64,000 bases of DNA, from the NCBI GenBank assembly GCA_035288865.1, contig DATDZA010000018.1, positions 10,065-74,064 on the forward strand. The letters run 5' to 3'. A model generated the notes under the pieces. It made no database searches. It was not told the origin of the DNA and saw only the letters and a list, made by a program, of their open reading frames with translations. Made by a program: the position numbers and the translations under genes. The DNA is from Candidatus Nanoarchaeia archaeon (GTDB taxonomy: Archaea; Nanobdellota; Nanobdellia; Woesearchaeales; GW2011-AR4). This document shows, one piece after another, positions 19,903 to 57,369 of the stretch (positions within the stretch are counted from its first letter, which is position 1; each line of letters starts with the position of its first letter).

Positions 19903-20541
19903 ATGAAAAAGACAAATATTTTTCTTATGACGGCTATAATTATTGTTTTGCTCTCAATAGTCGTATGGAGCCAGATTTCTCCAGTAAGCTATCTGCAAAC
20001 CAAAAATACTTCAATAACCCCCACAATAAAAATTGAGGAAACAAAAACATGCACAACTACTTTTTACAATCAAATACAAGATGTTTATGGCAACTGTGTT
20101 TATTACAGCAATTATACGAGCTGCCTAAATACCTCAGGACCATCAACAGACTGCTCATTAGAGCATAGTCAACGGAGTTTTAGCTGCAAGACAGGAGAGA
20201 CCATCATAGTAAATAATAGGACTGAATGCAAGCCGGATAATAAATTTCTGATAGTAATTGACAAAGGAAATGCCGTTGTTAAGAACCAAATAGATTCTTC
20301 AGATTGGGGACCTTGCGTTTACACCACTGAAAATAACTGCTTGATTGTAACTTGCGTATCTATCTATGATGGTGCACATAAAGGGCAATTTACAGACTGC
20401 AATAGCGGCAAAAGCTGCGAGAAATTTGAGATTTGTGATAATAGCGTGAAAACTTTCTACAAAAATTCAAGAGACGATTTTGCAGAGGATGATACAAGCT
20501 TCCATCTGAATAAATTATCAATTCAGGAGGTGGGACAATGA
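19903..20541 (+). CDS. secreted cysteine-rich protein (signal peptide, about 16 Cys)
   Basis: N-terminal hydrophobic signal (IFLMTAIIIVLLSIVVWS), many Cys, and several N-x-S/T sequons. Confidence 0.45.
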   Translation: MKKTNIFLMTAIIIVLLSIVVWSQISPVSYLQTKNTSITPTIKIEETKTCTTTFYNQIQDVYGNCVYYSNYTSCLNTSGPSTDCSLEHSQRSFSCKTGETIIVNNRTECKPDNKFLIVIDKGNAVVKNQIDSSDWGPCVYTTENNCLIVTCVSIYDGAHKGQFTDCNSGKSCEKFEICDNSVKTFYKNSRDDFAEDDTSFHLNKLSIQEVGQ

Positions 20542-23734: not shown

Positions 23735-24106
23735 ATGAAAATTGCCGAAGAAAAAAGATATTTTAGTTATAAGAAATTCTTAATTGAATTTTTTAGACCA
23801 ACAAAATGGAAAATTATCTTAACTGCATTTTTTTCTCTATTAGTACTTCTAATATCTATTGGTATACCCTTACCTATATTAAGTAAGAGAGTCTATTTTA
23901 CTGATAGTTCTAAAATAGATCTCAACCCAATCCTTTACATGCCTATTAGTGCAATCTTAGAAACTTTTTCCATAAATATAAACTTTGGCAGTTTAGGCTT
24001 TTATATTTACATCTTATTACTACTTTTATATTATTATATAATTGCATCATTAAGTATTTTTATTTGTAGAATAGTTGTGAATTATTTAAAAAATGCAAGC
24101 AAATAA
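23735..24106 (+). CDS. hypothetical small membrane protein
   Basis: ORF with three hydrophobic helices. Confidence 0.3.
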   Translation: MKIAEEKRYFSYKKFLIEFFRPTKWKIILTAFFSLLVLLISIGIPLPILSKRVYFTDSSKIDLNPILYMPISAILETFSININFGSLGFYIYILLLLLYYYIIASLSIFICRIVVNYLKNASK

Positions 24107-26369
24107 AAGAAGTTTAATGTCGTTTTGTATATTTATAATGGTTTCGTACAGTGCATTAGGTATAGTAGATACTAATCCATCTAACAATTTTAAAAATATA
24201 ACTATAAGTGTTGCCACAACGCAGAAATTAGAGTTAACTTTCATCCCAATAGATAATCCGCTTGATTTTAATGTTACCGTTTTAGATTTCATAAAATTTT
24301 TTAATGCAACTTACCCAGTAGCAGATAATTACTTGACATTTACTTATGGTAAACCTTACGCAAGTCTACCAGAGGAAAAAAGTGACTTAGATAGGTTATT
24401 ATCTAAATTAGCAAGACGGGGAATACTAAGTTATAAGAGAACTATCGGTGTAGTTCCGAAATATTGGTTTAAGAACTATACAGTTTTAGCAACAGCTGAT
24501 GGGTATACCTTAGTTCAACATGGTATCGTGCTGTTTCCTGGTGGTATTGCCGAAGCAAGGAACCAAAGGCATATAGCCGCACATGAGATTGGGCATACTT
24601 TTGGATTGTGTGACGAGCACTCTTCAAGTTACTGGAATTCTCAGAATAAAATAGCAGCGGTGCCTGGCTTTTGTCCAAATGGCGATGTGGATAATAACGA
24701 AGTTTTAGATTCAAATTGTGAGCCTTTAGGTTGTGCTACATCCACAATAAATAGAGTAATACCCTGGATTAACTCTACTGGGGAGGTTAATTTATACAAT
24801 CTTATGGGTAGTGCCGACCAAGACTCTGCATGGATTTCCAATGAGAGTTATCTACATTTATTAAACAAATTCAAACAAAATTCTTTGATTGCTGTAACTG
24901 GACTAGTTTTGAGTGGGATAATTAATAAATCAAGTGAAGCTATAGACGTATATCCTTCTTATATAATCAACAATGTTGAAATAACACAACCAAATACAAC
25001 AGTGAATGGAAATTATTCAATAGAGATTCTAGATAATGATAGCCAAGTAACTTCAAAAATTAATTTTACTCCATCATTTTTAGATGTGGGTTTTAATGGA
25101 AGTAGTATTGAGACAAATATAATTTATTTCATTGTTGTCATGAACTTTTCTTCAAACAATAAAGGTTTCAGGATTAAAAATAATGATGTGGTGAAAAAAG
25201 AAATAAACAAAACGCCCAATACCCCCTCACTCAACCTTACCTTTCCCTTCGGCAACGAAGTTGTTTCCAACAAAATGAATATTACTTATAATTCTTCTGA
25301 TTCTGATGGGGATATCCCAAATTACGCAATCTTAATATCATCAGATAACGGAAGTTCATATTCAACCCTAGACATAGATGTAGTAAACAAATCTTTTTTC
25401 GTAAACACATCCGATTTGCCCGAGGGCAAAAATTACTTAGTAAAAGTCTTAGCAACAGACGGAATCAACACAAACACAACGGTTTCTGAAAATACTTTTG
25501 AGATTGATAATGATTTGAGAATAACAAATTTAACAACGCTAAATCAAAACAGCACTAAGGAAATATTTTATTATGAAACCAAGAACACTTTAGAAACTCC
25601 TTTAACAAATGTTTCTGAACAATTGAATACAGGCGAATCAACAGTCCAGTTCACAACAAATCATTCTTTAAACTCAAACGAAAATATTATGGTATTCGTA
25701 GCTTACGATTATAACACTACAGGAACTAAAACTTTAACAGCAACTGCAACCTCTGGCTCTTACGTTGAGATAGAATCATCAACCATAATAGTTCCAGACA
25801 TAGAAATAAAAGATTTTATGATTTTAAACCAAAGCATAACAAAAAGATTGTTTGGATTTATCATCTTAAACAACTTAAACCAGACTATAAGTAATCTGAA
25901 CTGGACTTTAAGCACTCAATTAGGAAATATCTCATTGCCGCAATTTGTTTCTTTAACATCAAATCAAAACCTGTTCAATTTCGTGTTTTATGATTTTGTA
26001 AATAAGGGAAATTATAATATAACTATAACCGCTTCAAACGGAAGCATTAATGCTTCACAAAGCATGGTAATTAAGGTTAAAGACATAAGAGTGGATAATT
26101 TAACAGTTGCATTTGACAACAACACAAACAAGATATTTAATTTCATAATAAGCAATGACTGGAATTCAAGTTTGCCTGCTGTGAATTGGACATTGAATAA
26201 CAGCCAAAACATTACCATATCTAATAATTTGATAAGTCTTGTTCCGGGTGAAAATATATTGGTTTATGTCAATTCTAACTTTACATCAACTGGAAACTTT
26301 AATGTAAATGCGAGTGCAATTAACGGAACAACTTTGGATTCGGAATTGACAAGCGTTAGTGTAACTTAA
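24093..26369 (+). CDS. secreted zinc metallopeptidase (metzincin-like) with three C-terminal Ig-like repeats
   Basis: Signal peptide. Zinc-binding HEIGHTFGLCDEH (HExxHxxGLxDEh, as in M6/M7/M64-type metzincins). The C-terminal third is three ~95-aa sequon-dense repeats. Confidence 0.6.
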   Translation: MQANKRSLMSFCIFIMVSYSALGIVDTNPSNNFKNITISVATTQKLELTFIPIDNPLDFNVTVLDFIKFFNATYPVADNYLTFTYGKPYASLPEEKSDLDRLLSKLARRGILSYKRTIGVVPKYWFKNYTVLATADGYTLVQHGIVLFPGGIAEARNQRHIAAHEIGHTFGLCDEHSSSYWNSQNKIAAVPGFCPNGDVDNNEVLDSNCEPLGCATSTINRVIPWINSTGEVNLYNLMGSADQDSAWISNESYLHLLNKFKQNSLIAVTGLVLSGIINKSSEAIDVYPSYIINNVEITQPNTTVNGNYSIEILDNDSQVTSKINFTPSFLDVGFNGSSIETNIIYFIVVMNFSSNNKGFRIKNNDVVKKEINKTPNTPSLNLTFPFGNEVVSNKMNITYNSSDSDGDIPNYAILISSDNGSSYSTLDIDVVNKSFFVNTSDLPEGKNYLVKVLATDGINTNTTVSENTFEIDNDLRITNLTTLNQNSTKEIFYYETKNTLETPLTNVSEQLNTGESTVQFTTNHSLNSNENIMVFVAYDYNTTGTKTLTATATSGSYVEIESSTIIVPDIEIKDFMILNQSITKRLFGFIILNNLNQTISNLNWTLSTQLGNISLPQFVSLTSNQNLFNFVFYDFVNKGNYNITITASNGSINASQSMVIKVKDIRVDNLTVAFDNNTNKIFNFIISNDWNSSLPAVNWTLNNSQNITISNNLISLVPGENILVYVNSNFTSTGNFNVNASAINGTTLDSELTSVSVT
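25510..26366 (+). repeat. three tandem ~285-nt intragenic repeats encoding sequon-dense β-sandwich modules
   Basis: Protein segments starting ITNLTTLNQNS..., IKDFMILNQSIT... and VDNLTVAFDNNT... share a NLT/NxS-rich pattern. Confidence 0.45.
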
Positions 26370-28672: not shown

Positions 28673-29539
28673 CTATTTCTTTCCTTTTCCCATCATCGCA
28701 ACATAATAATGGTAGATTGTATTGCCTTTGTAATGCACTATAAAAGAAATGATCTGAATTAAGACAGAAACGCTTCCGTATATCATTAAGTACCAATAAA
28801 GCATCGAGTATTTAGGCAATGCATTCCAGTAATAATTGTTTAATGTTTCCAATAAAACTAAGATGTTAATGTGGATTATGTTAAAAGGGGCGCCCCAGAA
28901 TTCCTTAATAAAATCATAAGTATGATATAATTTTGCTCCTGTTTCTGTTGAGCCGCCTTCAACATTTGGGCTCTTTCCGACTATTGAAGAGTATTTTTTT
29001 AATTTTTCGTCACTTCTGTTATTTTTTCTGTCTCTTATTGCATTCTTGACTACTGCAGACTTTATGGCTGACAGAACAGTTGACCTTGAAAATACTCCGC
29101 ACAGAAATCCGAAAATTACTGCTGACTTGTAGCCAGTTGCTAGAAATATCCCAAAACCCAAACTGAAAAAAATTAATGGGACTGACAATTCATGATAATA
29201 TTGCTCCAGAAAAGTTCCCATCATGCTTCCTTCTTTCCTGTACCGTGCGACTTCACCGTTAACGTTGTCTAAAATAACTGTGAAATGAATTATTAAAATT
29301 CCTATTAACATTAATTTTAATGTTCCAAATGTCATGAAAGCTGAACCCAGGATAGCCAATAAAATCATGCCAATCGTAATCATGTCCGCACTTATTGGGG
29401 TGTATAAAAGCAATTTAGTGACGTAAATAGAAATTTTCATGGTCACCCATTCCATGTACAATGGTCTTCTGCTTTTTGAATCCTTGTAGCAGATTTCCCT
29501 TAGTTCTTTTATGGATTCTACCATTGTAATTAAAGTCAA
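28673..29539 (-). CDS. CDP-alcohol phosphotransferase-family membrane protein (variant motif)
   Basis: LDNVNGEVARYRKEGSMMGTFLEQYYHE approximates DG(x)2AR(x)8G(x)3D(x)3D, with terminal E/H substitutions. Multi-TM. Confidence 0.45.
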   Translation of the reverse strand: MTLITMVESIKELREICYKDSKSRRPLYMEWVTMKISIYVTKLLLYTPISADMITIGMILLAILGSAFMTFGTLKLMLIGILIIHFTVILDNVNGEVARYRKEGSMMGTFLEQYYHELSVPLIFFSLGFGIFLATGYKSAVIFGFLCGVFSRSTVLSAIKSAVVKNAIRDRKNNRSDEKLKKYSSIVGKSPNVEGGSTETGAKLYHTYDFIKEFWGAPFNIIHINILVLLETLNNYYWNALPKYSMLYWYLMIYGSVSVLIQIISFIVHYKGNTIYHYYVAMMGKGKK

Positions 29540-29550
29540 GAATAGGATAT

Positions 29551-30426
29551 TTAAAGGTATCTTTTAAGATTTATGTGATTTCTTAGATTCTTTAGTACCG
29601 AATAAGGAATTTTCAGCTTTCCTAAAACCTGGTCGGGCCGTCCGTGAAAATCCGAGCCGCCGGTTTCCAATATATTTTTTTCTTTTACGATTTTTCTGAA
29701 TTCGCTGATTGTTTTTGCATTTGCCCTTTTTCCGGTGTGGTATCTTGATGTTTCATAAGAATAATATGTTTCAATCCCATCACCGCCATTTTTCAGGAAG
29801 TAGTCAATGAATTTGTCTATGTTAAAATTATTATAAACTCCCGGGTGCGAAATAAAAACCAAGCCATTTGCCGCATGAACTGCCTTTATCGCTTCTTTTA
29901 TGCTTATTTTATTTCTTCGTTCAACATAAGCTAATTTTCCGACTGACAAATATTTGTCAAAGGCTTCATCAAATGAATTTACTTTATCAGGATTATTTTT
30001 TATTATTATTTTTGCGATATGGGGCCTTCCAATTTCTCCTTTTGCTATTGCCTTTACCTCATCAAATGTTATCTTAAATCCCAGTTTCCTGAATTTAGTT
30101 ATTATTTCTTTTTTTTGCCTCTCTCTGCAAGTTCGCGCTTTTTTTATTAAAGACTTAAGTGTTTTGTTTTTGTGATTGATAAATAAACCCAAGATGTGCG
30201 TATCAACATAGCCTTTGTCGTCGCAGCTTATTTCGACTCCCGGAACTATTTCAATATTTTTTCCTTTAGCCGCTATTATTGCCTCATCAATTCCGTTGAA
30301 AGAGTCATGGTCCGTTATTGCGATTGCGCTGAGGTTTTTTTTTATAGCGAGTTCAACAAGCTTTCTTGGAGAAAGCTTACCGTCTGATGCTGTAGTGTGG
30401 CACTGCAAGTCTATATTTTTCATCAT
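29551..30426 (-). CDS. PHP-domain phosphoesterase (TrpH/YciV family; pAp phosphatase or RNase AM-like)
   Basis: IDLQCHTTASDGKLSP...AIAITDHDS N-terminal PHP metal-binding motifs, further His motifs (ISHPG..., GSDFHG) and ~290-aa length. Confidence 0.75.
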   Translation of the reverse strand: MMKNIDLQCHTTASDGKLSPRKLVELAIKKNLSAIAITDHDSFNGIDEAIIAAKGKNIEIVPGVEISCDDKGYVDTHILGLFINHKNKTLKSLIKKARTCRERQKKEIITKFRKLGFKITFDEVKAIAKGEIGRPHIAKIIIKNNPDKVNSFDEAFDKYLSVGKLAYVERRNKISIKEAIKAVHAANGLVFISHPGVYNNFNIDKFIDYFLKNGGDGIETYYSYETSRYHTGKRANAKTISEFRKIVKEKNILETGGSDFHGRPDQVLGKLKIPYSVLKNLRNHINLKRYL

Positions 30427-30429
30427 GGA

Positions 30430-30960
30430 TTATAAAATAATTTTAGATTTAATTACTTTCAGCAATTTACCTACAGATTCCTCGACTGACTCCCTGTCAG
30501 TATTAAGCGTCAAGTCCGGATTTTTAGGCTCTTCATATTTTGAAGAAGTGCTCAAGAAATTCTCAAATCCCTTTTCCTTTCTTTTGGCTTTCTTGTAATG
30601 CCCTTTTACATCCCTTTGTCTGCATATCTCGAGCGGGCATTTTACATGGACTAAAAGCATTTTTTTCAGAATACTCTTTGCGTATTCCCTTGAGCTTTCT
30701 GTAGGTGAAGCAACAGATGCTATAACAAGAACTCCATTTTTAGATATTATTCTGCATATTCCGGCTACTCTTTTCATGTGCTTATTTCTTTCTTCAACTG
30801 TGTATCCCAAATCAGAGGAAACAGTTTTTCTTATTTCATCTCCATCTACAATCACAACACTAATCTTATCATGCCTTAGCTTGTCTGCCAGCCCGGAAGC
30901 AATGGTTGACTTTCCAGCTCCGTGATGGCCTGTAAACCATATTGTCCAAGATTCTTTCAT
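30430..30960 (-). CDS. cysC: adenylyl-sulfate (APS) kinase
   Basis: FTGHHGAGKST (P-loop), VDGDEIRK and GFENFLSTSSKYEEPKNPDLTLNT, matching the CysC signature GFTGIDSPYEAPENPEL. Confidence 0.85.
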   Translation of the reverse strand: MKESWTIWFTGHHGAGKSTIASGLADKLRHDKISVVIVDGDEIRKTVSSDLGYTVEERNKHMKRVAGICRIISKNGVLVIASVASPTESSREYAKSILKKMLLVHVKCPLEICRQRDVKGHYKKAKRKEKGFENFLSTSSKYEEPKNPDLTLNTDRESVEESVGKLLKVIKSKIIL

Positions 30961-31844
30961 TTTCCTGCCGATTTGTTTCTTGTTTTAACTGCTTTTTTAA
31001 GGTTTTCCAAAATGTTTTCAGGTATCTGTATTTCTCCCAAAGTTGACCTGTACATATCATGGTGGTCATTCCCGCCGCTTTCGAGCAGGTTTTTTGATTT
31101 TACAATTTTTTTATAAAATTTATTTAATTGTTCATTACCATCCCTGTCAATTTTAAGCTCAGGGCATACTATGTGGTACGGGTAATAAGTTTCTATGCCG
31201 TCGCCGCCACTGGCAATAAAATGATCAACAAGCTTTAATGAATGTTCTCTTGGATAAATGCCCGGATGGGCAAGTATAGCCAATCCTTTTGCCTGCTTTA
31301 TTATCCTTATTGCATCTGCTACAGATACTCTGCTCTCAGTCTTTACAAAAGCTTTTTTCCCTCTTCCAATAAGTTTGTCAAAAACATCCCTCACAGAAGA
31401 GAATTTATCAGGATACTTTTTGATAAGGTATTTTGCAATATGCGGCCTTCCAAAAGTTCCGCCAACAGTTTTTTTTACATCGCTGTAAGTTATCTTGTAT
31501 CCTAAATACCTTAATTTTCCAATTATGAGCTTTTTGTTTTCCTCTCTTTTGAAATTTATGTGTTTAATTAGATTTAGAAGTTCTTTATTCTTATAATCTA
31601 TAAATAATCCAAGCACATCTATCTTTTCATAAGAAAAAAGCGGGTCATCACAGCTGAGCTCCACACCAGGGATTATTTCTATGTTTTTTCCTTTAGAGTA
31701 TTCTATGGCTTTTCTTAATGATCCAACAGAATCATGATCGGTAATTGCAATAGCGCTTAACTTCTTTTTTATCGCCAGCTCTATCAATTCCTCCGGGGAT
31801 AGTTCTCCGTCAGAGGCTGTTGTATGGCTTTGCAGGTCTATCAT
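30957..31844 (-). CDS. PHP-domain phosphoesterase (paralog of 29551..30426)
   Basis: MIDLQSHTTASDGELSP...AIAITDHDS. Collinear with the other PHP paralog. Overlaps cysC by 4 nt. Confidence 0.75.
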   Translation of the reverse strand: MIDLQSHTTASDGELSPEELIELAIKKKLSAIAITDHDSVGSLRKAIEYSKGKNIEIIPGVELSCDDPLFSYEKIDVLGLFIDYKNKELLNLIKHINFKREENKKLIIGKLRYLGYKITYSDVKKTVGGTFGRPHIAKYLIKKYPDKFSSVRDVFDKLIGRGKKAFVKTESRVSVADAIRIIKQAKGLAILAHPGIYPREHSLKLVDHFIASGGDGIETYYPYHIVCPELKIDRDGNEQLNKFYKKIVKSKNLLESGGNDHHDMYRSTLGEIQIPENILENLKKAVKTRNKSAGK

Positions 31845-31886: not shown

Positions 31887-32510
31887 TTATCTCTTCAGCA
31901 GCAATGCAAGCCTTTTTGCCAGCTTTTCAAACCTGCCCGAACCAATTTCAATTTTTTTTACAGGAATCATCTTCACGAACTCTTTTCCATTTTTATCTTT
32001 GAATATCTCTTTTTTGCCGAAAGAACTGTCAACAGTATAGGGCTGGCCTATATTGTCCCGGAATGGAAATACTTTGATGTGGAGGTGCTCCTTTTTCTCT
32101 TTCCATGTAGTGCACTTGCCATAGGCTGCAACAGGTGCGGAAGAGATTTTCTGTTCGGCGTTGGCCAATAAATTTTCGTTTTGCATCAAAATCACCGTCA
32201 TGGCCCTGCAAATCCTGGAAAATGACAATCCAAAATTTTCTGCCATTCCCTGATATGCGCCGATCTGGGAAAAATGAGTAAGATGGGATATCGGCATAAG
32301 CTGTATTGTAAAATCAAATTCAGGATTGCCCCCGGTTTGTGGGGACAAAGTAGCGAACCAGCCGTTTTTTTTATTCCCTATTTTAAAAATAACCGCACCA
32401 TATCCGGTTTTTTCTCCGACTTTATAGGCTGCATCTTTGCATAAATTACAATTCTTTTTTTGGCCGGCATTCTCCTGCAGAAGCTTTTCTGCTTCCTTGA
32501 CCGCGTGCAT
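31887..32510 (-). CDS. HIT-superfamily GalT/Apa2-branch-like nucleotidyltransferase/phosphorylase (tentative)
   Basis: N-terminal CNLCKD (CxxC, as in GalT/Apa2 zinc sites) and HLHIKVFPF (HxH-x-K in place of HxHxQ). The 207-aa length is typical of Ap4A phosphorylase/ADP-sulfurylase-like proteins. Confidence 0.4.
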   Translation of the reverse strand: MHAVKEAEKLLQENAGQKKNCNLCKDAAYKVGEKTGYGAVIFKIGNKKNGWFATLSPQTGGNPEFDFTIQLMPISHLTHFSQIGAYQGMAENFGLSFSRICRAMTVILMQNENLLANAEQKISSAPVAAYGKCTTWKEKKEHLHIKVFPFRDNIGQPYTVDSSFGKKEIFKDKNGKEFVKMIPVKKIEIGSGRFEKLAKRLALLLKR

Positions 32511-32511
32511 T

Positions 32512-33597
32512 TCAGTCGACCGCCTTTATGTATTCATAATCCCTTCTGCCGCTTAAATAAGAGTCAAAATAACCGACAACAAGCCTGTGATATTTTTTTC
32601 CGGATTTAGGAATCACTTCCTCAACAACGCCGCTCGCCTCAATTTTTTCATTTTTATATGCAAGCATGCAGTAGTCCCTTGAGTAAAAAACTACTTTGCT
32701 TATGGCGGCATTTGTGCACGTTGAATCGCCATCAAGAAATCTTGAATCAGAAATCAAATAGCAGCCAGGCCTGACCACTGAATTTTTATGGTCTCCGACC
32801 AAACCAATATATTTTGCCTGCCCAATTCTTCTGTATTTTTCACTGCCCCACTTGAACCATGCTTCATTTTCAAGCTCGACGGCGAATATTACAAACAAGG
32901 TCCCCTTGAAGAAGCCTTCTGACTTTTTTCTGTGCATATTTTCTATATATTTCTCCTTTTTATGCACCATATGCCTGTTGCGCTTTTTGTAGAATGATTC
33001 CCACTCGCTGTAAGTTTTCCACCTTAGGCCTTTGTTGGATGTTTTTTTAAGAAATTCCATAAGGCTCCAAAATTTATTTTTTCCATAAACCACGATGTTT
33101 ATGTCAGACATATTGGGTGAGTAATGGCCCATAAGTGTCGAGTAGGTTATCCCAAAATCTTCAGGCTTGAGGCCGCTTTTTAAAAGCAGCGACACAAGCT
33201 CAACCACATTCCTAAGGTGCTGGTCCAGGTCTTTATCCGGCATTCCCATAAGCTGTGCCAGGCCCTCTCTTGGGGAATATTCCCTTTCTATATTTTTTTT
33301 TGGCACTGCAAAAAACAGGGGGCTTTTGTCGTGAACAGGGCTCCTGAAAATGTACTGGGGATAAGCCTTTGCAAATGAATTAATGTATTGCGTAAGCTTT
33401 TCAGTGTCAATCCACAAATCCAGGCGGTTCATCTTTCTTCCGGAAATAAATCTGTAGGACAGAGCGTCGCTTGAAATTATATCGGTAGGAATATATTTTG
33501 GCTTGATCAAAACCCTGCCTTCAGGATGCTGATTGCCATAAACTTGGCAATGCAATCCGTCAATTGTGGTAATTATTGAAGATTCGTAAAAGTGCAT
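32512..33597 (-). CDS. Polβ-superfamily nucleotidyltransferase-domain protein, paralog A (DxN variant)
   Basis: Central MGHYSPNMSDINIVVYGK aligns with the minimal-NTase GS...SDIDL motif, with the second acidic residue replaced by N. The likely start is the MHFYES methionine at 33597, not the upstream ATG of the track ORF. Confidence 0.55.
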   Translation of the reverse strand: MHFYESSIITTIDGLHCQVYGNQHPEGRVLIKPKYIPTDIISSDALSYRFISGRKMNRLDLWIDTEKLTQYINSFAKAYPQYIFRSPVHDKSPLFFAVPKKNIEREYSPREGLAQLMGMPDKDLDQHLRNVVELVSLLLKSGLKPEDFGITYSTLMGHYSPNMSDINIVVYGKNKFWSLMEFLKKTSNKGLRWKTYSEWESFYKKRNRHMVHKKEKYIENMHRKKSEGFFKGTLFVIFAVELENEAWFKWGSEKYRRIGQAKYIGLVGDHKNSVVRPGCYLISDSRFLDGDSTCTNAAISKVVFYSRDYCMLAYKNEKIEASGVVEEVIPKSGKKYHRLVVGYFDSYLSGRRDYEYIKAVD

Positions 33598-33598
33598 T

Positions 33599-34708
33599 TT
33601 AAAAACCCGACTTAATAAATTCTTTTTCTCTCCTTTCATTGAGATAAGCGTCAAAATAACCGATTACCAGCCGGTAATATTTCGTGCCTTTTTTAGGAGT
33701 CACCATCTCAAGGAGCCCGCAGGCAGTTATTTCTTCCCCTTTCAGTGCCTGCTGCACAAAAGGGATTGAGTATGTCACAACTCTTTTGATTTCCAAAGAA
33801 CCATCAATTTTTATATTTTTTAAATGAAAATCTATTATTTTTCCGTTTGTAATTTCATAAAATCCTGGTCTCACATGGCTGTTATAATGATCTGTAACTT
33901 TTCCTTTTATTGTGACCGTTCCCAGCGGCTCAAATTTGTCCTCGCCCCATCTGAACCAGGTTTCCTGAGGCTCTTCAACAGTAAATAATGTGAAAACTGT
34001 GCCGGAGAACATTCCTTCATACCTTTTTCTCCTCATATGGTCGACATATTCTTTTTGCGTGAATTGCACTGATTCCGAAGTTTTATGCTCCTGATAATAT
34101 CTTTTCCATTCTTCATCAGTTTTCCAGTGCAATTTTTCATGCTTTGCATTTTTGAGATAATTAAAAATTTTCCATCCGTTGCCCTTGCCGTAGATTATTA
34201 TATCAATGTCGGACTTTCCAATAGTATAATTTCCCATTAAAGTAGAATGTGTTATGCCGAGATTTTCAGGCTTTACTCCGCTTTTTGCCAGGAATTCGAT
34301 GAGTTCCATTACGGAAATCAAATATTCATCCAAGTCTTTTCTTGGAACCTGCATTAGCTCCTGCAGGCCTTTCCGTGGATCATGGATTGCGATTATTTTT
34401 TCTCTCGGAACAGCAAAAAACCAGTTTTTGGTGTCATTGCAGTTATATATATAGTCAGGAAATTTTTTCTTGAACTGCACGACATAAGACTTGAGCTTTT
34501 CCTTGTCTGCAAACAAATTAAACCTTATCATGCATTTTTCAAATAAAAATCTGTACTTCAGGCCGCTGCCTTCCAGCGCATTTTTAGGTATGTATTTGGG
34601 CTTGACTATAACATATCCTTTGGGGTGCTCGTTCGAGTACGATTTGCACTGAAACCCGTCCACAGTATCCAGCAATATTGATTCGTAAAAATGCATATAA
34701 ATCACCAA
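33599..34708 (-). CDS. Polβ-superfamily nucleotidyltransferase-domain protein, paralog B (intact DxD)
   Basis: MGNYTIGKSDIDIIIYGK (G-S...DxD). Same tri-partite layout as paralog A. The likely start is MHFYES at 34696. Confidence 0.55.
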   Translation of the reverse strand: MVIYMHFYESILLDTVDGFQCKSYSNEHPKGYVIVKPKYIPKNALEGSGLKYRFLFEKCMIRFNLFADKEKLKSYVVQFKKKFPDYIYNCNDTKNWFFAVPREKIIAIHDPRKGLQELMQVPRKDLDEYLISVMELIEFLAKSGVKPENLGITHSTLMGNYTIGKSDIDIIIYGKGNGWKIFNYLKNAKHEKLHWKTDEEWKRYYQEHKTSESVQFTQKEYVDHMRRKRYEGMFSGTVFTLFTVEEPQETWFRWGEDKFEPLGTVTIKGKVTDHYNSHVRPGFYEITNGKIIDFHLKNIKIDGSLEIKRVVTYSIPFVQQALKGEEITACGLLEMVTPKKGTKYYRLVIGYFDAYLNERREKEFIKSGF

Positions 34709-34812
34709 AAACTTATTGTAAATGTATTATTCTATTCTATTTAAATTTAACTTAATGCGATAAGGAAACCAGTCTGTAATAAATTATGCTAGTTCAGATT
34801 TTAATCTGCATT

Positions 34813-35898
34813 TTATTTTAAATCTTTAAGAATTTTATTTAATTTTTCTGATAATTTTTTCCAGTCAAAGTTTATAACATCTTCACCATAATCTGGCCTG
34901 GAATTATTTTCAAGCTTGAGCATTATCTTCTCGCTGAAATCATCAACATTGCCGGGAGAAGCCAGGCTTCCATTATATTTCTTAAGCATAAATGAAACAT
35001 CTCCGATGTCGGTTGCAACAATCGGAACATTGCATGCCAAGTATTCCGCTAATTTATACGGGAAGCAGTATTTAGTAAATTCGTTTGCTGTATTTGGAAT
35101 AACAGCAACATCAGCAGAATTAATTCCCAGAACAACATCCTCCCTTTTTGGAAAAGCCCTAAATATGATATTTTTCTGCTTTATGTTAAGCCCTTTTTCA
35201 ATCTCTCCGCTCAGGAGAAGATAGGTATCAGGAAAATCCTGCTTTACTTTGCTAAAAGAATGAAGCAGTATATTGGCGCCTTTTAATTTCTCAAGATGGC
35301 CAATGTATACTATAATTTTGGATTTTAATGGTAATTTTAATTTTTTTCTTGCTTTTTCCCTATCTATAGGCTTGAATAAATCTAGCTCAATTCCGTTTTG
35401 AATAACGTACGTCGGCTTTTTCCTTGTCTTTGAAACATACTCCTTCAAACTCTCGCTGACCGTCAGAACAATATCAGCTTCATCAACAGCTTTTTTATGA
35501 AAATATGAAACAAAAGGAAACCTGTATGTATCATATGTTTCAAAATTATCCTGCAGGTCATATATTAAAGGTAAATGAAATTTTTTTGATAGGTGATTAC
35601 CCAGAGCACCAATTAACGGGTCAGATGATGCTACAATAACATCATAATTTTCTTTTTTAATTAATTTTTTTGCTTCATCGATAAAAGAAAATATTGAAAA
35701 AAATGATACCGGGGCAATAAAGAAACTCACACCATTTCTTTTAATAATCTTGGATTCTTTTTTTGTATAATCCGGGCATAGAAAATCAATTTGATGCTCT
35801 TTTGCCAGATTTTCAAACAATCTTATCTGGCGCCCGAAATAGGTGAGAACCATGTCCTTATTGGCGCCAAAGCGCTTCATTATGACGAGAATTTTCAT
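34813..35898 (-). CDS. family 4 (GT-B) glycosyltransferase
   Basis: GT4 fold, C-terminal CNVPIVATDIGD region, 361 aa. Confidence 0.7.
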   Translation of the reverse strand: MKILVIMKRFGANKDMVLTYFGRQIRLFENLAKEHQIDFLCPDYTKKESKIIKRNGVSFFIAPVSFFSIFSFIDEAKKLIKKENYDVIVASSDPLIGALGNHLSKKFHLPLIYDLQDNFETYDTYRFPFVSYFHKKAVDEADIVLTVSESLKEYVSKTRKKPTYVIQNGIELDLFKPIDREKARKKLKLPLKSKIIVYIGHLEKLKGANILLHSFSKVKQDFPDTYLLLSGEIEKGLNIKQKNIIFRAFPKREDVVLGINSADVAVIPNTANEFTKYCFPYKLAEYLACNVPIVATDIGDVSFMLKKYNGSLASPGNVDDFSEKIMLKLENNSRPDYGEDVINFDWKKLSEKLNKILKDLK

Positions 35899-45251: not shown

Positions 45252-46100
45252 TTATTTCTTAAAATTATAAAGAGCATCGGTAATGTATCTATGGCGCTCC
45301 ATATTGTAATAAAAAGCCAAAATCCATATTAATTTTGCAATAAATAATACTAACAAATATGGCACAATAAACCCCACCACTGAGATTGGATAGTCCATTT
45401 TGTTTCTAAAAATATACTCCGTTAATGTTAAGATGATTAGTATAGGGCAGGAGAAATATGCTGAATAAAATAGGCCGTTGAATGGGTAAATCCCGAATAG
45501 CTTATGGATTATGCTTGTCTTAGACCACACGATCTTTTTTTGAGTATTCCATAATAATCTGCCCATCACTGGCCTGTAATTTTTTAGTGGCATACCCATT
45601 TCCATCATGCCGGTTTTTATTGATGACCTCATTGCGTAAGTTATAGAATGTTCTAAAGTTATAATCAGGGTGATGGCCAATCCCAGGTATAAATATAATC
45701 CATTGCTGTAAATTTTTGAGAGGCCAACACCAATTCCAGTACCAAAGCATATAGACCAAACGTAATGGCTCATCTCATCGAAGAAGATACCCTCAAAACT
45801 TTTTTGATTAAGTATTCTTGCGATGTCCCCGTCTGAGCTGTCTAGAGTATAAAATAAAAAAAATAATGCAATCCCGACTGCGAAATAAATATATGTGCCT
45901 AAGGATAAGAATATGTAGCCCAAAACTCCCAAGAGATACGTGAATAGGGTTAGCTTGTTTGGTGTAGCGCCTAATTTTATCAGAATATATGTAAACGGAA
46001 GAGAAATTTTAACATATATTGTGTTCCCCTTTTTCTTTGATTTTATATCCGCTTCCTGCCTCGCTGCTAAATCTTTAAATGAAATATTCTTGCTCGTCAT
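45252..46100 (-). CDS. CDP-alcohol phosphotransferase-family membrane protein (variant motif), paralog of 28673..29539
   Basis: DSSDGDIARILNQKSFEGIFFDEMSH approximates D(x)2DG(x)2AR(x)8G(x)3D(x)3[D>H]. Multi-TM. Confidence 0.5.
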   Translation of the reverse strand: MTSKNISFKDLAARQEADIKSKKKGNTIYVKISLPFTYILIKLGATPNKLTLFTYLLGVLGYIFLSLGTYIYFAVGIALFFLFYTLDSSDGDIARILNQKSFEGIFFDEMSHYVWSICFGTGIGVGLSKIYSNGLYLYLGLAITLIITLEHSITYAMRSSIKTGMMEMGMPLKNYRPVMGRLLWNTQKKIVWSKTSIIHKLFGIYPFNGLFYSAYFSCPILIILTLTEYIFRNKMDYPISVVGFIVPYLLVLFIAKLIWILAFYYNMERHRYITDALYNFKK

Positions 46101-54811: not shown

Positions 54812-56206
54812 TTGACAAGTTTGTCCAGAACAAGTGAAATGATGAATATTTTGCTGCTTATTATAGATGCTTTAAGACCCGATCATTTAGGTGCATGTGG
54901 TTATAGCCGGGAAACCAGCCCAAATATTGATAAGCTTGCAAATGAAGGAGTAGTATTCTTGAATGCTTATTGCACACTGCCAAGATCCGACCCTTCTATA
55001 ACTTCGATGCTTACCGGAAACTACCCATATTCCCATGGGGTAAGGATGATTACAAACAACAAAGTAGATCCTTCGATTTCCACTCTCCCCGAAATACTCA
55101 AGAGCCACGGTTACAGGACAGGATTCATAAAGCCGGGAACAATCCCTCCGGAAGGATACAGCAGGGGCTTTGATGATTATGATTTGGTTGGATGGAAAAT
55201 CAAGAATAAAATTAAGAGGGGAATATTCAAGATAAAAAATCCCGGAAATTTCTTGGGACCGGCAGCACAAAGATTTTCAACAGCCGTTAAGTGGATTAAT
55301 AAAAATGCACACAAAAAATTCTTTTTAGCTGTGCATACGCACGACTTGCACTGGCCATATCCCGTGCCCAAGCCATATGACCATATTTTTGACCCCGGCT
55401 ATAAAGGTGCACACACATTTGCTGATTTGGGCAAAGGGACAATCAGCAGGGGCGACCTCAGTTTTGGAGTCAAGAAACTCCCTAAAGAAGAAATTGACCA
55501 CGCGATTGCCCATTATGATGGCGGAATAAAGTATGTTGACGAATCGCTCAAAACAGTTTTCGATGCGCTGAAGGAAAAAAATATCTATGACGATACTTTA
55601 ATTATTATAGTTTCAGACCATGGCGAACACTTTGATGAGCATGGTTATTATTTTCAGCATGGCGCCAGCCTTTATGAACCCAGTGTAAAATCAACTTTTA
55701 TTATGAGATATCCAAAAAGGATTCCTCAGAAAAAAATAATTGAAAGCAGAGTTCAGTTGCTGGATATAACTCCAACAATTCTTGACATCCTCAATATACC
55801 TTTAATAGAAAAGAAAGAAGGCGTAAGCCTTATGCCACTTATAGACGGAAAAGTCAATGAAGCCCGTGATTTTGTATTCGTTGAGGGAATCGAAGAGTAT
55901 TTTAGCCAGCACAAGAGGATTTATCTGAAAGGCATAAAAGGAAAATGGCGAATGATTATTGTCGGTGACTGGAAACTTATATATATACCACATCCTGAAA
56001 AAAATATTTTTGAACTTTACAATCTGCGCCAAGACCCAAAGGAAGAAAGCAACCTGGTTGGCAAAGAGCAGGAAATATTTTTATCACTAAAGACGAAATT
56101 ATTTGATTTTTTGAGCTTGCAGAGCAATGAAGGCGAAGTCAACATTAAGGATTTGTCACAAAAGTCAAGGCAATTGCTGATTAAAGCTGGCTATCTGGAA
56201 AAATGA
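54812..56206 (+). CDS. sulfatase-family (alkaline-phosphatase superfamily) protein, cytoplasmic, non-canonical Cys motif
   Basis: NILLLIIDALRPDHLG N-terminus and SDHGEHFDEHGYYFQHG. A candidate formylglycine site CTLPRS sits where CxPxR is expected, with P shifted one residue. No signal peptide. Confidence 0.65.
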   Translation: MTSLSRTSEMMNILLLIIDALRPDHLGACGYSRETSPNIDKLANEGVVFLNAYCTLPRSDPSITSMLTGNYPYSHGVRMITNNKVDPSISTLPEILKSHGYRTGFIKPGTIPPEGYSRGFDDYDLVGWKIKNKIKRGIFKIKNPGNFLGPAAQRFSTAVKWINKNAHKKFFLAVHTHDLHWPYPVPKPYDHIFDPGYKGAHTFADLGKGTISRGDLSFGVKKLPKEEIDHAIAHYDGGIKYVDESLKTVFDALKEKNIYDDTLIIIVSDHGEHFDEHGYYFQHGASLYEPSVKSTFIMRYPKRIPQKKIIESRVQLLDITPTILDILNIPLIEKKEGVSLMPLIDGKVNEARDFVFVEGIEEYFSQHKRIYLKGIKGKWRMIIVGDWKLIYIPHPEKNIFELYNLRQDPKEESNLVGKEQEIFLSLKTKLFDFLSLQSNEGEVNIKDLSQKSRQLLIKAGYLEK

Positions 56207-56220
56207 TATTGTGAACGAGA

Positions 56221-57369
56221 ATGAAAATTCCATTTCTCTCCGGAAAAAGAAAACCCAACATCGTAATGATTCTGATAGATTGCGGCGGGCGAGAAGATGC
56301 CATCACGAAAGTGCCGTTCTACCAGAAGCTAAAAGAATCGTCTGTACTATTTTCAAGTTTTATAACTTACGCCCCTTATACCATCGGGGCCCTAAATGCA
56401 ATGTTTTCAGGAATGTACGGCAATTTGAATGGCGTTCAGGGATATTATAAGAGTTATAGCTTTGACAAGGACCACGTTTTTACATTGACGCAATACCTGA
56501 AAGACGAGGGATATTACACCGAGATGGATTTTCCGATTGAAGACGTACTTCCCCAACAGGGTTTTGATAAGGTGAGGCTTTTCGGCAAGGACGAAACTAA
56601 AGAGATAGACCTTTTACAGCGCCATTGCGAGGTCCTTAACCAAATAAAAGACAAACAGCCATTCTTCCTTTTCCTTGAATACAACAAACTGGGATTGACC
56701 CTTATGAGGGAAGTAATAAAGAAATATGATGATTACAATGAAGATTATTTCAGGAACAAGGAAAAAAACTTTTCCAGATATTTAAAAGAGCTCGAGGAAA
56801 GCGGTAATTACCTGGAAGGATACTTCACAAAGATGAAAGAGCTTGATTTGTTTGAAAATTCAATAATTGTAGTGTTTGCCGACCACGGAAGCAGTGTGGG
56901 TGATAAACCAGGGGAAAAAGTCTATGGTACATATCTGTATGATTACACCATAAAATGCTGGGCCTATGTGATTGGCAATGGCATACCTAAGAATCTGGAA
57001 ATTAGGCAAGTTGTGAGGAATATAGACTTGCTTCCAACTATTCTGGAATTATTAAAAATATCAGTAAAGAAAAAATATAAACCAATTCAGGGCAGGTCGC
57101 TGCTGCCATTGCTGACGGGAAAAAAAGAAGCTAGGATTGCTTATTCGGAAACAGGCGGCCTTGGAGGACCAACACCTTCGCCGGAAAAACACAATATCAG
57201 GGCGGTAAGAACTGACAAATGGAAATTGATCTATAATGAAACCAACAAGAAAAAAGAGTTATATGACTTGGAGAATGACAGAGAGGAAATAAATAACCTC
57301 ATAGGCAAGGGGCTGGATATAGAAAAATTACTGTGGGATGAGCTGCAGAGACAGGGCGAGCTTCTTTAA
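56221..57369 (+). CDS. sulfatase-like alkaline-phosphatase-superfamily protein lacking the C/S-x-P-x-R motif
   Basis: NIVMILIDCGGRED and VVFADHGSSVGD (DHG). No formylglycine motif and no signal peptide. Confidence 0.55.
   Translation: MKIPFLSGKRKPNIVMILIDCGGREDAITKVPFYQKLKESSVLFSSFITYAPYTIGALNAMFSGMYGNLNGVQGYYKSYSFDKDHVFTLTQYLKDEGYYTEMDFPIEDVLPQQGFDKVRLFGKDETKEIDLLQRHCEVLNQIKDKQPFFLFLEYNKLGLTLMREVIKKYDDYNEDYFRNKEKNFSRYLKELEESGNYLEGYFTKMKELDLFENSIIVVFADHGSSVGDKPGEKVYGTYLYDYTIKCWAYVIGNGIPKNLEIRQVVRNIDLLPTILELLKISVKKKYKPIQGRSLLPLLTGKKEARIAYSETGGLGGPTPSPEKHNIRAVRTDKWKLIYNETNKKKELYDLENDREEINNLIGKGLDIEKLLWDELQRQGELL

Follow-up and report, generated by a model that had tools for sequence, protein, structure and literature searches.

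In the genome of a Candidatus Nanoarchaeia archaeon, a 64,000-nucleotide stretch of contig DATDZA010000018.1, referred to here in its full length as the window, carries two adjacent genes for paralogous proteins, A and B, which probably have the fold of the Pol-beta nucleotidyltransferases (NTases) and of which only B retains the complete metal-binding motif. Comparison with related loci suggests that the functional unit is larger than this pair and comprises B, A, a HIT-like protein, usually a PHP phosphoesterase and often an NPP-type phosphodiesterase (PDE). We propose, with about an even chance of being correct, that B and A together with the HIT-like protein constitute a non-canonical sulfate adenylyltransferase complex, which forms adenosine 5'-phosphosulfate (APS) and feeds glycan sulfation dependent on 3'-phosphoadenosine 5'-phosphosulfate (PAPS). 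The main basis for assigning sulfate adenylylation to the module is its in situ displacement by canonical ATP sulfurylase (Sat).

The Paralogous Pair and Its Fixed Motif Difference

Paralog B (33599..34696; 365 aa) and paralog A (32512..33597; 361 aa) are both encoded on the minus strand, with one base separating the stop codon of B (33601–33599) from the ATG of A (33597). They lie within adjacent open reading frames (ORFs) at 33599..34708 and 32512..33654, and the methionines of a shared MHFYES sequence were taken as the starts. An original prediction, made from the sequence alone, had described tandem paralogs spanning 32512–34708. Both limits were correct, but position 34708 corresponds to an upstream TTG, and homologues point to the ATG at 34696 as the start. 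The tandem arrangement itself is firmly established by the one-base spacing, the common start and, in a BLASTP alignment, 160 identities over 365 positions (44%) extending along the full length. With an E value of 1e-114, this end-to-end identity excludes chance resemblance and defines B and A as true paralogs.

The motif of B (GITHSTLMGNYTIGKSDIDIIIYG, including SDIDI) reads G147-ITH-S151-x11-D163-I-D165-I, and with this intact signature B is presumed to be the catalytic subunit. In A (GITYSTLMGHYSPNMSDINIVVYG, including SDINI) the spacing is the same and the second metal-binding Asp is replaced by Asn, while the His adjacent to the motif Ser is Tyr. An alignment of 62 sequences showed SD[IM]D in 37 of 37 B-type proteins and SD[ILMV]N in 25 of 25 A-type proteins, and across about 55 loci DxN occurs in every A ortholog with a readable motif and DxD in every B ortholog. 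In both lineages 73 positions are at least 90% conserved, and a further set of 14 positions is fixed but lineage-specific, D165N and H150Y among them. Database relatives of B (389) and A (253) form two separate lineages showing 55–80% identity and they span the Woesearchaeales/Nanoarchaeia, Aenigmatarchaeota and Iainarchaeia (Diapherotrites). They are either unnamed or are called "predicted nucleotidyltransferase".

The ratio of nonsynonymous to synonymous substitution rates (dN/dS), estimated against the closest genome (locus L006), was about 0.08 in B; in A, with dS saturated, it did not exceed 0.1, and the HIT-like gene is similarly constrained. On the evidence of this purifying selection, A is a maintained, specialised paralog and is not decaying. 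Because the consensus of the wider family is DxD, the Asn of A is not a family feature but a derived, maintained state of one lineage. The pattern of an enzyme and an altered paralog, read originally from a single pair of genes, therefore holds for the lineages as a whole, with the motif difference fixed and both members under purifying selection. A is presumably a conserved subunit that is non-catalytic or altered; since only one of three carboxylates is changed, from Asp to Asn, it may have residual or altered activity. When positions 32512–34696 of the window are compared with L006 10001–12188, B is 90% identical, A 71% and the HIT-like protein 72%, a contrast that points either to faster evolution of A and the HIT-like protein or to recombination inside the operon.

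Membership of the Pol-beta superfamily is not apparent from standard searches. The Pfam model NTP_transf_2 gives a sub-threshold score with B (15.3 bits against a cutoff of 21), no Pfam match was obtained for A, and neither protein yielded a match in NCBIfam or in PDB searches with sequences and B/A profiles, so that, in agreement with the original prediction, these searches disclosed no characterised full-length family. B nevertheless conforms to the Pol-beta signature hG[GS]-x9-13-[DE]h[DE]h, the equivalent in distant relatives being GITGS-x11-SDID. Two such full-length relatives, P0386 (27.3 bits) and P0383 (23.4 bits), exceed the NTP_transf_2 cutoff and are tied to B/A by profile search with E values of 1e-41 to 1e-42.

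An AlphaFold2 model of B, based on the family alignment, was of high predicted quality (predicted local distance difference test, pLDDT, 94.2; predicted template modelling score, pTM, 0.91). It shows an N-terminal beta/alpha domain (about residues 1–105), an alpha/beta NTase core carrying the motif (about 107–250) and a C-terminal OB-like beta-barrel (about 254–345). Two invariant residues, E241 and E245, are candidates for the third carboxylate. Foldseek searches with the model gave weak matches (E > 0.03) to the OB domains of SSB and LysRS and to the cores of Pla1 and the CCA-adding enzyme (for these cores, probabilities 0.2–0.5). Both flanking domains had originally been left unrecognised; the model now assigns the C-terminal one to the OB-like barrels, while the N-terminal one does appear to be novel. 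Two specific roles suggested by this architecture were considered and dropped: a TiaS-like tRNA modification enzyme, combining a catalytic domain with an OB fold, found no Pfam match to DUF1743 or tRNA_anti-codon, and for a Mop/TOBE-type oxyanion-binding role the fold matches are SSB/LysRS-like and not TOBE.

A Conserved Module in DPANN Archaea

The distribution of the pair was surveyed with custom hidden Markov models in 67 loci (numbered with the prefix L), derived from GTDB species genomes together with several metagenomic contigs and covering at most 21 kb each. In about 57 DPANN loci the order of B(DxD) followed by A(DxN) is invariant. The HIT-like gene follows A, or is fused to it, in about 50 of the 52 eligible loci, and the eight A+HIT-like fusions (570–597 aa), seven of them recovered in automated scoring, account for the proteins of about 570 aa found with A. 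A PHP gene comes next in 35 of 47 loci. An NPP-type phosphodiesterase (PF01663, of the NPP/alkaline-phosphatase superfamily), for which there was no NCBIfam match, lies directly upstream of B in 22 of 47 loci; in seven further loci it is fused to B, three of these fusions carrying an inserted SpoT-like HD domain. APS kinase is encoded within 10 kb in 17 of the 35 fully flanked loci. The linkage of the pair to cysC and PHP genes, first seen in the window, recurs among DPANN loci.

Sulfotransferase and sulfatase genes are frequent neighbours, with recognisable sulfotransferases near the module in 8 of the 35 fully flanked loci. In one locus, L005, the set PDE-APS kinase-B-A-HIT-like-PHP stands alone amid housekeeping genes with no glycan genes nearby, and the module is therefore self-contained.

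Further domain combinations were observed. The three fusions of NPP-type PDE, SpoT-like HD domain and B (1087–1105 aa) are located at L046 7757–11074, L051 7808–11071 and L061 6712–9975, an HD+B fusion of 626 aa at L047 2531–4411, and an 812-aa protein combining A, the HIT-like protein and a HAD-like C-terminal domain at L045 11061–13499. HD_4 proteins encoded separately come after the module in L009 and L065. The latter contig (JAGXBC010000002.1) is labelled Patescibacteria and many others, including L008, L013 and L015, "uncultured Methanosarcinales"; because of their gene content and the 70–79% identity to proteins of Woesearchaeota/Nanoarchaeia, these labels seem to stem from mis-binning or from a placeholder taxonomy.

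Canonical ATP Sulfurylase in the Same Operon Slot

To avoid seeding bias from B and A, metagenomes were also scanned using the APS kinase of the window as seed. This yielded 11 flanked loci with B-A-HIT-like-PHP beside the kinase, and two contigs, L085 and L087, with no B, A or HIT-like gene. In these, pyruvate kinase and a canonical PUA_2+ATP-sulfurylase (PF01747, 1e-73) lie directly upstream of APS kinases that are 64% (L085) and 61% (L087) identical to that of the window. The remainder of L085 shows synteny with the window: the first gene (GT1) is 57% identical to the glycosyltransferase upstream of B, the CDP-alcohol transferase 60%, an epimerase 75% and UDP-glucose dehydrogenase 68%, the last two falling, together with an NTP-transferase and a flippase, in a range of 43–75%. 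The same slot thus has two fillings, GT1-[B, A, HIT-like, PHP1]-APS kinase-CDP-alcohol transferase and GT1-[pyruvate kinase, Sat]-APS kinase-CDP-alcohol transferase. Among DPANN-type kinase loci, counted at the level of the locus and not genome-wide, 22 carry the module without Sat, two Sat without the module, and none both. Such a swap is the classic signature of non-orthologous displacement. Among the activities put forward in the original prediction, it is the adenylylation of sulfate that this displacement and these counts favour.

Canonical enzymes were also sought at the module loci. The Sat motifs QxRNPxH and GRDHAG are absent from 1.2 Mb of B/A-seeded loci and present in L085 and L087, which served as positive control. 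B, A and the HIT-like protein have no Pfam or NCBIfam match to PF01747/Sat, and within the operon there is no Pfam match to PAPS_reduct or GTP_EFTU, indicative of CysD and CysN. Two SGGKDS matches, the only ones in all loci, were considered as CysD and rejected since, judged by sequence context, they look more like sugar amidotransferases.

The pyruvate kinase of L085 and L087 carries an N-terminal extension of about 95 aa resembling a helix-turn-helix and its gene is directly upstream of, and overlaps, that of Sat (L085 1307–4166; L087 133–2953). A pyruvate kinase is an uncommon companion of Sat and may serve to regenerate ATP locally.

The HIT-Like Protein

The third near-obligatory component of the module is encoded in the window at 31887..32510 (minus strand; 207 aa). 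None of its 310 homologues is named or carries a Pfam domain, and the protein itself gave no match in Pfam, NCBIfam or PDB sequence and profile searches. Its invariant residues are a CxxC (C21, C24), H76/H79-FSQ and KKEH142-L-H144-I-K146, a set in which the CxxC and histidines resemble a GalT-type zinc site and histidine motif; in H142-L-H144-I-K146-I-F, a Lys occupies the third position of the pattern H-phi-H-phi-H/Q-phi-phi. A model of an A+HIT-like fusion (pLDDT 86 overall and 50–95 in the C-terminal domain) showed a C-terminal domain matching the HIT fold, with hits to the HIT family structure 3o0m (probability 0.97, TM score 0.59), to Fhit (7p8p; probability 0.75) and to DcpS. When the profile of the HIT-like proteins was compared by hhalign with a sequence of human FHIT, only the histidine motif aligned, non-significantly.

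In two independent lineages the slot between A and PHP is occupied instead by a ProRS-like class II aminoacyl-tRNA synthetase core (L031 12183–13493; L034 6222–7721), consisting of a tRNA-synt_2b core and a ProRS C-terminal domain with no anticodon-domain match. Class II aminoacyl-tRNA synthetases also make mixed anhydrides of the X-AMP type from ATP, and this replacement therefore supports a third component that handles an adenylate.

PHP Proteins and Removal of pAp

In NCBIfam the first PHP protein of the window, PHP1, scored best, though below cutoff, with the models for RNase RNM and for 3',5'-nucleoside bisphosphate phosphatase, and the nearest solved structures to the PHP proteins are 7ug9, 9etk and 2yb1, with homology E values of 1e-20 to 1e-27. 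The last of these we take to be Cv1693, a phosphatase of 3'-phosphoadenosine 5'-phosphate (pAp). Fusions of PHP to APS kinase occur at L015 12830–14239 and L017 12796–14205. In two loci lacking PHP, a CysQ/IMPase-like domain (WxxDPxDGT) is fused to APS kinase instead (L020 3590–4888; L053 12790–14082), and the pAp phosphatase has apparently been swapped non-orthologously between PHP and CysQ-like forms. On the grounds of these fusions and of the homology to 2yb1 and 7ug9, the PHP protein is probably the pAp phosphatase of the PAPS cycle. The two kinds of kinase fusion therefore tie the module to PAPS and pAp metabolism.

Proposed Function and Alternative Readings

In the mechanism that we envisage, B and A would be the two subunits, probably as a heterodimer, of a single Pol-beta-fold nucleotidyltransferase. 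B would bind ATP-Mg and release pyrophosphate (PPi), nucleotidyl transfer from ATP with release of PPi being the usual chemistry of Pol-beta NTases, and A would act as a non-catalytic scaffold holding the HIT-like subunit. The net reaction of B, A and the HIT-like protein would be ATP + sulfate -> APS + PPi, after which the adjacent APS kinase would convert APS to PAPS, to be spent on sulfating surface glycans or lipids of the surrounding cluster. The by-product pAp would be cleared by the PHP proteins, or by the CysQ-like domain in other genomes, and PPi would be removed by the NPP-type PDE or by the SpoT-like HD domain fused to B, so pulling an unfavourable reaction.

For the AMP-sulfate bond itself two options can be envisaged, either direct attack of sulfate at the active site of B or a ping-pong reaction via His144-AMP on the HIT-like protein. 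The latter is attractive because enzymes of the HIT/GalT branch, such as APS phosphorylase and Apa1/2, are known catalysts of AMP-sulfate/AMP-phosphate exchange. In its most elaborate form, which we consider doubtful, this would make the module a third class of sulfate adenylyltransferase, with a mechanism of its own: B would adenylylate His144 of the HIT-like protein docked on, or fused to, A, the NPP or HD domain would destroy PPi, sulfate would attack the His-AMP phosphoramidate and APS would pass directly to APS kinase. The ProRS-like core would replace the HIT-like protein in some lineages, and the pairs of the wider family would be oxyanion- or phosphate-adenylylating enzymes filling missing cofactor steps.

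Several observations weigh against sulfate adenylylation by the module. Pol-beta NTases normally use hydroxyl and not oxyanion nucleophiles, and three or four proteins in place of one 385-aa enzyme are not a parsimonious solution. The displacement was seen on two contigs only and APS kinase lies within 10 kb of the module in only about half of the loci, while the assignment of the third protein to the HIT superfamily reflects a moderate fold match unaccompanied by a significant sequence match. Distant relatives of B/A occur in clusters for F420, methanopterin and methanofuran and not in sulfur contexts, and the OB-like domain, the RNase-AM-like PHP and the aminoacyl-tRNA synthetase-like replacement would also fit an RNA-directed function. 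Moreover, a KEGG-based survey reported sulfate adenylyltransferase genes in all hydrothermal-vent DPANN metagenome-assembled genomes (PMC8091004).

That survey bears especially on a reading in which the module belongs to the PAPS pathway and APS is supplied by a canonical enzyme encoded elsewhere. The module would then either serve an unconventional sulfotransferase or acceptor activation, for example by glycan or lipid nucleotidylation or by a LicD/fukutin-like transfer of sulfate from APS or PAPS, or would recycle or buffer APS and pAp. Such a role, which on present evidence seems rather unlikely, would account for the scarcity of recognisable sulfotransferases near the module, the sulfotransfer step being also missing locally, and for the CDP-alcohol transferase that often closes the operon. 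It has a chemical precedent in the Pol-beta-fold LicD/FKRP enzymes, which transfer phospho-alcohols from NDP donors. It would also accord with the hydrolysis or exchange of APS by HIT proteins, including the APS reactions of Fhit (PMC4613722). However, what replaces the block in L085 and L087 is an ATP sulfurylase, with pyruvate kinase, and not a sulfotransferase, while the flanking glycosyltransferase, APS kinase and CDP-alcohol transferase are unchanged. Nor do Sat and the module ever share a locus, and in L005 module and APS kinase occur without nearby glycan genes.

Much less probable is an NTase directed at RNA or tRNA, active in tailing, repair or modification and working with the phosphodiesterase, with the HIT-like protein as a de-adenylase or decapping enzyme and with PHP as a 5'-3' exoribonuclease, the linkage to sulfation being incidental. 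In its favour are the likeness of the barrel to SSB and LysRS anticodon-binding domains and that of the core to poly(A) polymerase and the CCA-adding enzyme, although all of these fold matches are weak (E > 0.03). Similarly, PHP has its closest relative of solved structure in a 5'-3' exoribonuclease (7ug9; RNase RNM model), DcpS is among the HIT-fold matches, and a ProRS-like protein with no recognisable anticodon domain replaces the HIT-like protein in two loci. Against this, the module occurs consistently in glycan and sulfation contexts, it is fused or adjacent to bona fide APS kinase and CysQ-like pAp phosphatases, its in situ displacement is by ATP sulfurylase, and its distant relatives lie in small-molecule cofactor clusters and not in RNA-processing contexts.

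Finally, a cyclic-oligonucleotide (OAS/cGAS-like) signalling or defence pair, or an NTase pair inactivating antibiotics or metabolites, both raised in the original prediction, is very improbable: it draws solely on the generic Pol-beta motif and the active/inactive pairing. Neither the pair nor the HIT-like protein or the PDE was recognised by PADLOC, and searches of Pfam and by fold gave no match to cGAS, OAS, Mab-21 or KNTase-like proteins. The examined neighbourhoods contain no effector or sensor genes and are always of surface-glycan and sulfation genes. Moreover, the conservation at 55–80% identity and in a constant gene order from one DPANN class to another is usual for metabolic genes but not for defence islands.

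Operon and Genomic Setting

As first predicted, the pair leads an operon that continues on the same strand into the HIT-like, PHP and cysC genes. The genes of this operon downstream of A share the minus strand and are spaced by -4 to 42 nt: the HIT-like gene, PHP1, a probable 3',5'-bisphosphonucleotide (pAp) phosphatase (30957..31844; PF02811, 1e-13), the APS kinase CysC (30430..30960; PF01583, 1.4e-43, 149 bits; TIGR00455, 167.5 bits against a cutoff of 138.7), the PHP1 paralog PHP2 (29551..30426; PF02811, 1.2e-14; NCBIfam results as for PHP1) and, last in the block, a membrane protein of the CDP-alcohol phosphatidyltransferase family (28673..29539; PF01066, 2.4e-5). PHP2 is present in the same order in L006, L022, L077 and L082. 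Directly upstream of B, on the same strand, is a GT4-family glycosyltransferase gene (34813..35898; PF00534/PF13439), which provides the syntenic anchor with L085. The intergenic region of 116 nt between them (34697..34812) carries an TTTAAATA box at about 34745–34738 and GGTGAT at 34706–34701, preceding the ATG at 34696. The archaeal TATA consensus is TTTAWATA, and the box and the Shine-Dalgarno-like GGTGAT are likely to represent a putative archaeal promoter and the translation start of the operon.

In its entirety the window forms an extensive island of surface-glycan genes, encoding glycosyltransferases, sugar-nucleotide enzymes, flippases and methyltransferases. Two adjacent sulfatase-family genes (PF00884) lie on the plus strand at 54812–56206 and 56221–57369, about 20 kb from the module. 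The island contains a second CDP-alcohol phosphatidyltransferase-family gene at 45252–46100 (minus strand) in addition to that at 28673–29539. The latter, at the end of the operon, is conserved behind APS kinase in both module-type and Sat-type loci, which hints that the acceptor of the pathway is lipid-linked or a phospho-alcohol. Two plus-strand ORFs inside the island, of 758 aa (24093–26369) and 212 aa (19903–20541), have no Pfam match.

The Wider Family and Its Significance

Profile searches placed B and A in a wider family of 944 clusters. Full-length relatives with 25–28% identity, all carrying GITGS...SDID, are found in Thermoproteota, Bathyarchaeia and Asgard archaea, often as tandem pairs inside cofactor-biosynthesis clusters. 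Thus, a pair is inserted in an F420 cluster as CofD-CofC-[pair]-CofE (L076 5348–9847), another follows an ATP-grasp gene (L075 5806–9065), and in Vulcanisaeta relatives lie in a methanopterin/methanofuran cluster beside CitG-like, MfnB and ATP-grasp genes (L073 1–14356). A tandem pair also occurs in Terraquivivens (L070 9920–11955), a distant full-length relative at L074 5626–9086, and one member of the wider family is fused to HPPK (P0440). The occurrence of tandem pairs in cofactor clusters supports a small-molecule substrate and heteromeric action for the family. It also shows the sulfur association in DPANN archaea to be a specialisation, and the non-DPANN relatives may fill missing steps of cofactor pathways.

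For the universal step of sulfate activation, only two enzyme solutions are known, Sat and CysDN. Our literature searches found no description of the B/A family, and papers on haloarchaeal Agl7 and sulfotransferases held nothing informative on the module. If sulfate adenylylation by the module is correct, a third and unrelated solution, in the form of a Pol-beta-fold enzyme/pseudo-enzyme pair with a HIT-like partner, would represent new enzymology. It would explain how PAPS is supplied for sulfated surface glycans in many genome-reduced DPANN archaea, correct sulfur-cycle annotations of metagenomes and provide a function for several hundred "hypothetical" proteins. Solving the function of B/A could, in addition, point to missing steps in the biosynthesis of F420, methanopterin and methanofuran. 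Even if the reaction proves to be different, the fixed DxD/DxN split constitutes a clean prokaryotic case of a long-maintained partnership between catalytic and non-catalytic paralogs.

Comparison with Known Systems

With the Pol-beta NTases (NTP_transf_2/Polbeta), including minimal NTases, CCA-adding enzymes, poly(A) polymerases and kanamycin NTase, B shares the G-x3-S-x11-D-x-D signature. However, the combination of a novel N-terminal beta/alpha domain, an NTase core and an OB-like barrel is new, the proteins are obligately duplicated in tandem with one copy fixed as DxN, and HIT-like, PHP, NPP and APS kinase partners are known for no characterised member. Enzyme/pseudo-enzyme pairs with the NTase fold, exemplified by the NF45/NF90 DZF heterodimer and MiD51, likewise combine one catalytic paralog with one conserved paralog carrying a fixed metal-ligand substitution, but they are eukaryotic, RNA- or organelle-related and homologous to the putative B/A heterodimer by fold only.

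Enzymes of the GalT/Apa branch of the HIT superfamily (ADP-sulfurylase, Apa1/2, Fhit) make or break the AMP-sulfate bond via a His-AMP intermediate, and the HIT-like protein shares with them the fold match, the H-x-H-x-[K] strand motif and the GalT-like CxxC/His set. It differs in being a single domain of 200 aa, in the change of the third His/Gln to Lys and in being always coupled or fused to A. Homology links the operon's PHP proteins to both RNase AM (YciV, 7ug9) and Cv1693 (2yb1), but for neither function does their score reach the NCBIfam equivalog cutoff. In other genomes a CysQ-like domain, there fused to APS kinase, is interchangeable with the operon PHP.

The closest functional counterparts of the module would be the canonical sulfate-activating enzymes, although it matches no known sulfate-activating family and would represent a Pol-beta-fold NTase system recruited, with its HIT-like partner, to a known reaction. 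In L085 and L087 canonical Sat (Sat/MET3; PF01747 with PUA_2) precedes APS kinase in the operon just where the module does in the window, and the net reaction presumed for the module, feeding CysC, would be that of both Sat and CysD/CysN. Sat, a nucleotidylyltransferase of the HxxH alpha/beta phosphodiesterase type, is unrelated in sequence and fold to B, A and the HIT-like protein. CysD, for its part, belongs to the PP-loop ATP pyrophosphatases and works with a GTPase, whereas the module would perform the same step with a Pol-beta-fold pair and a HIT-like protein.

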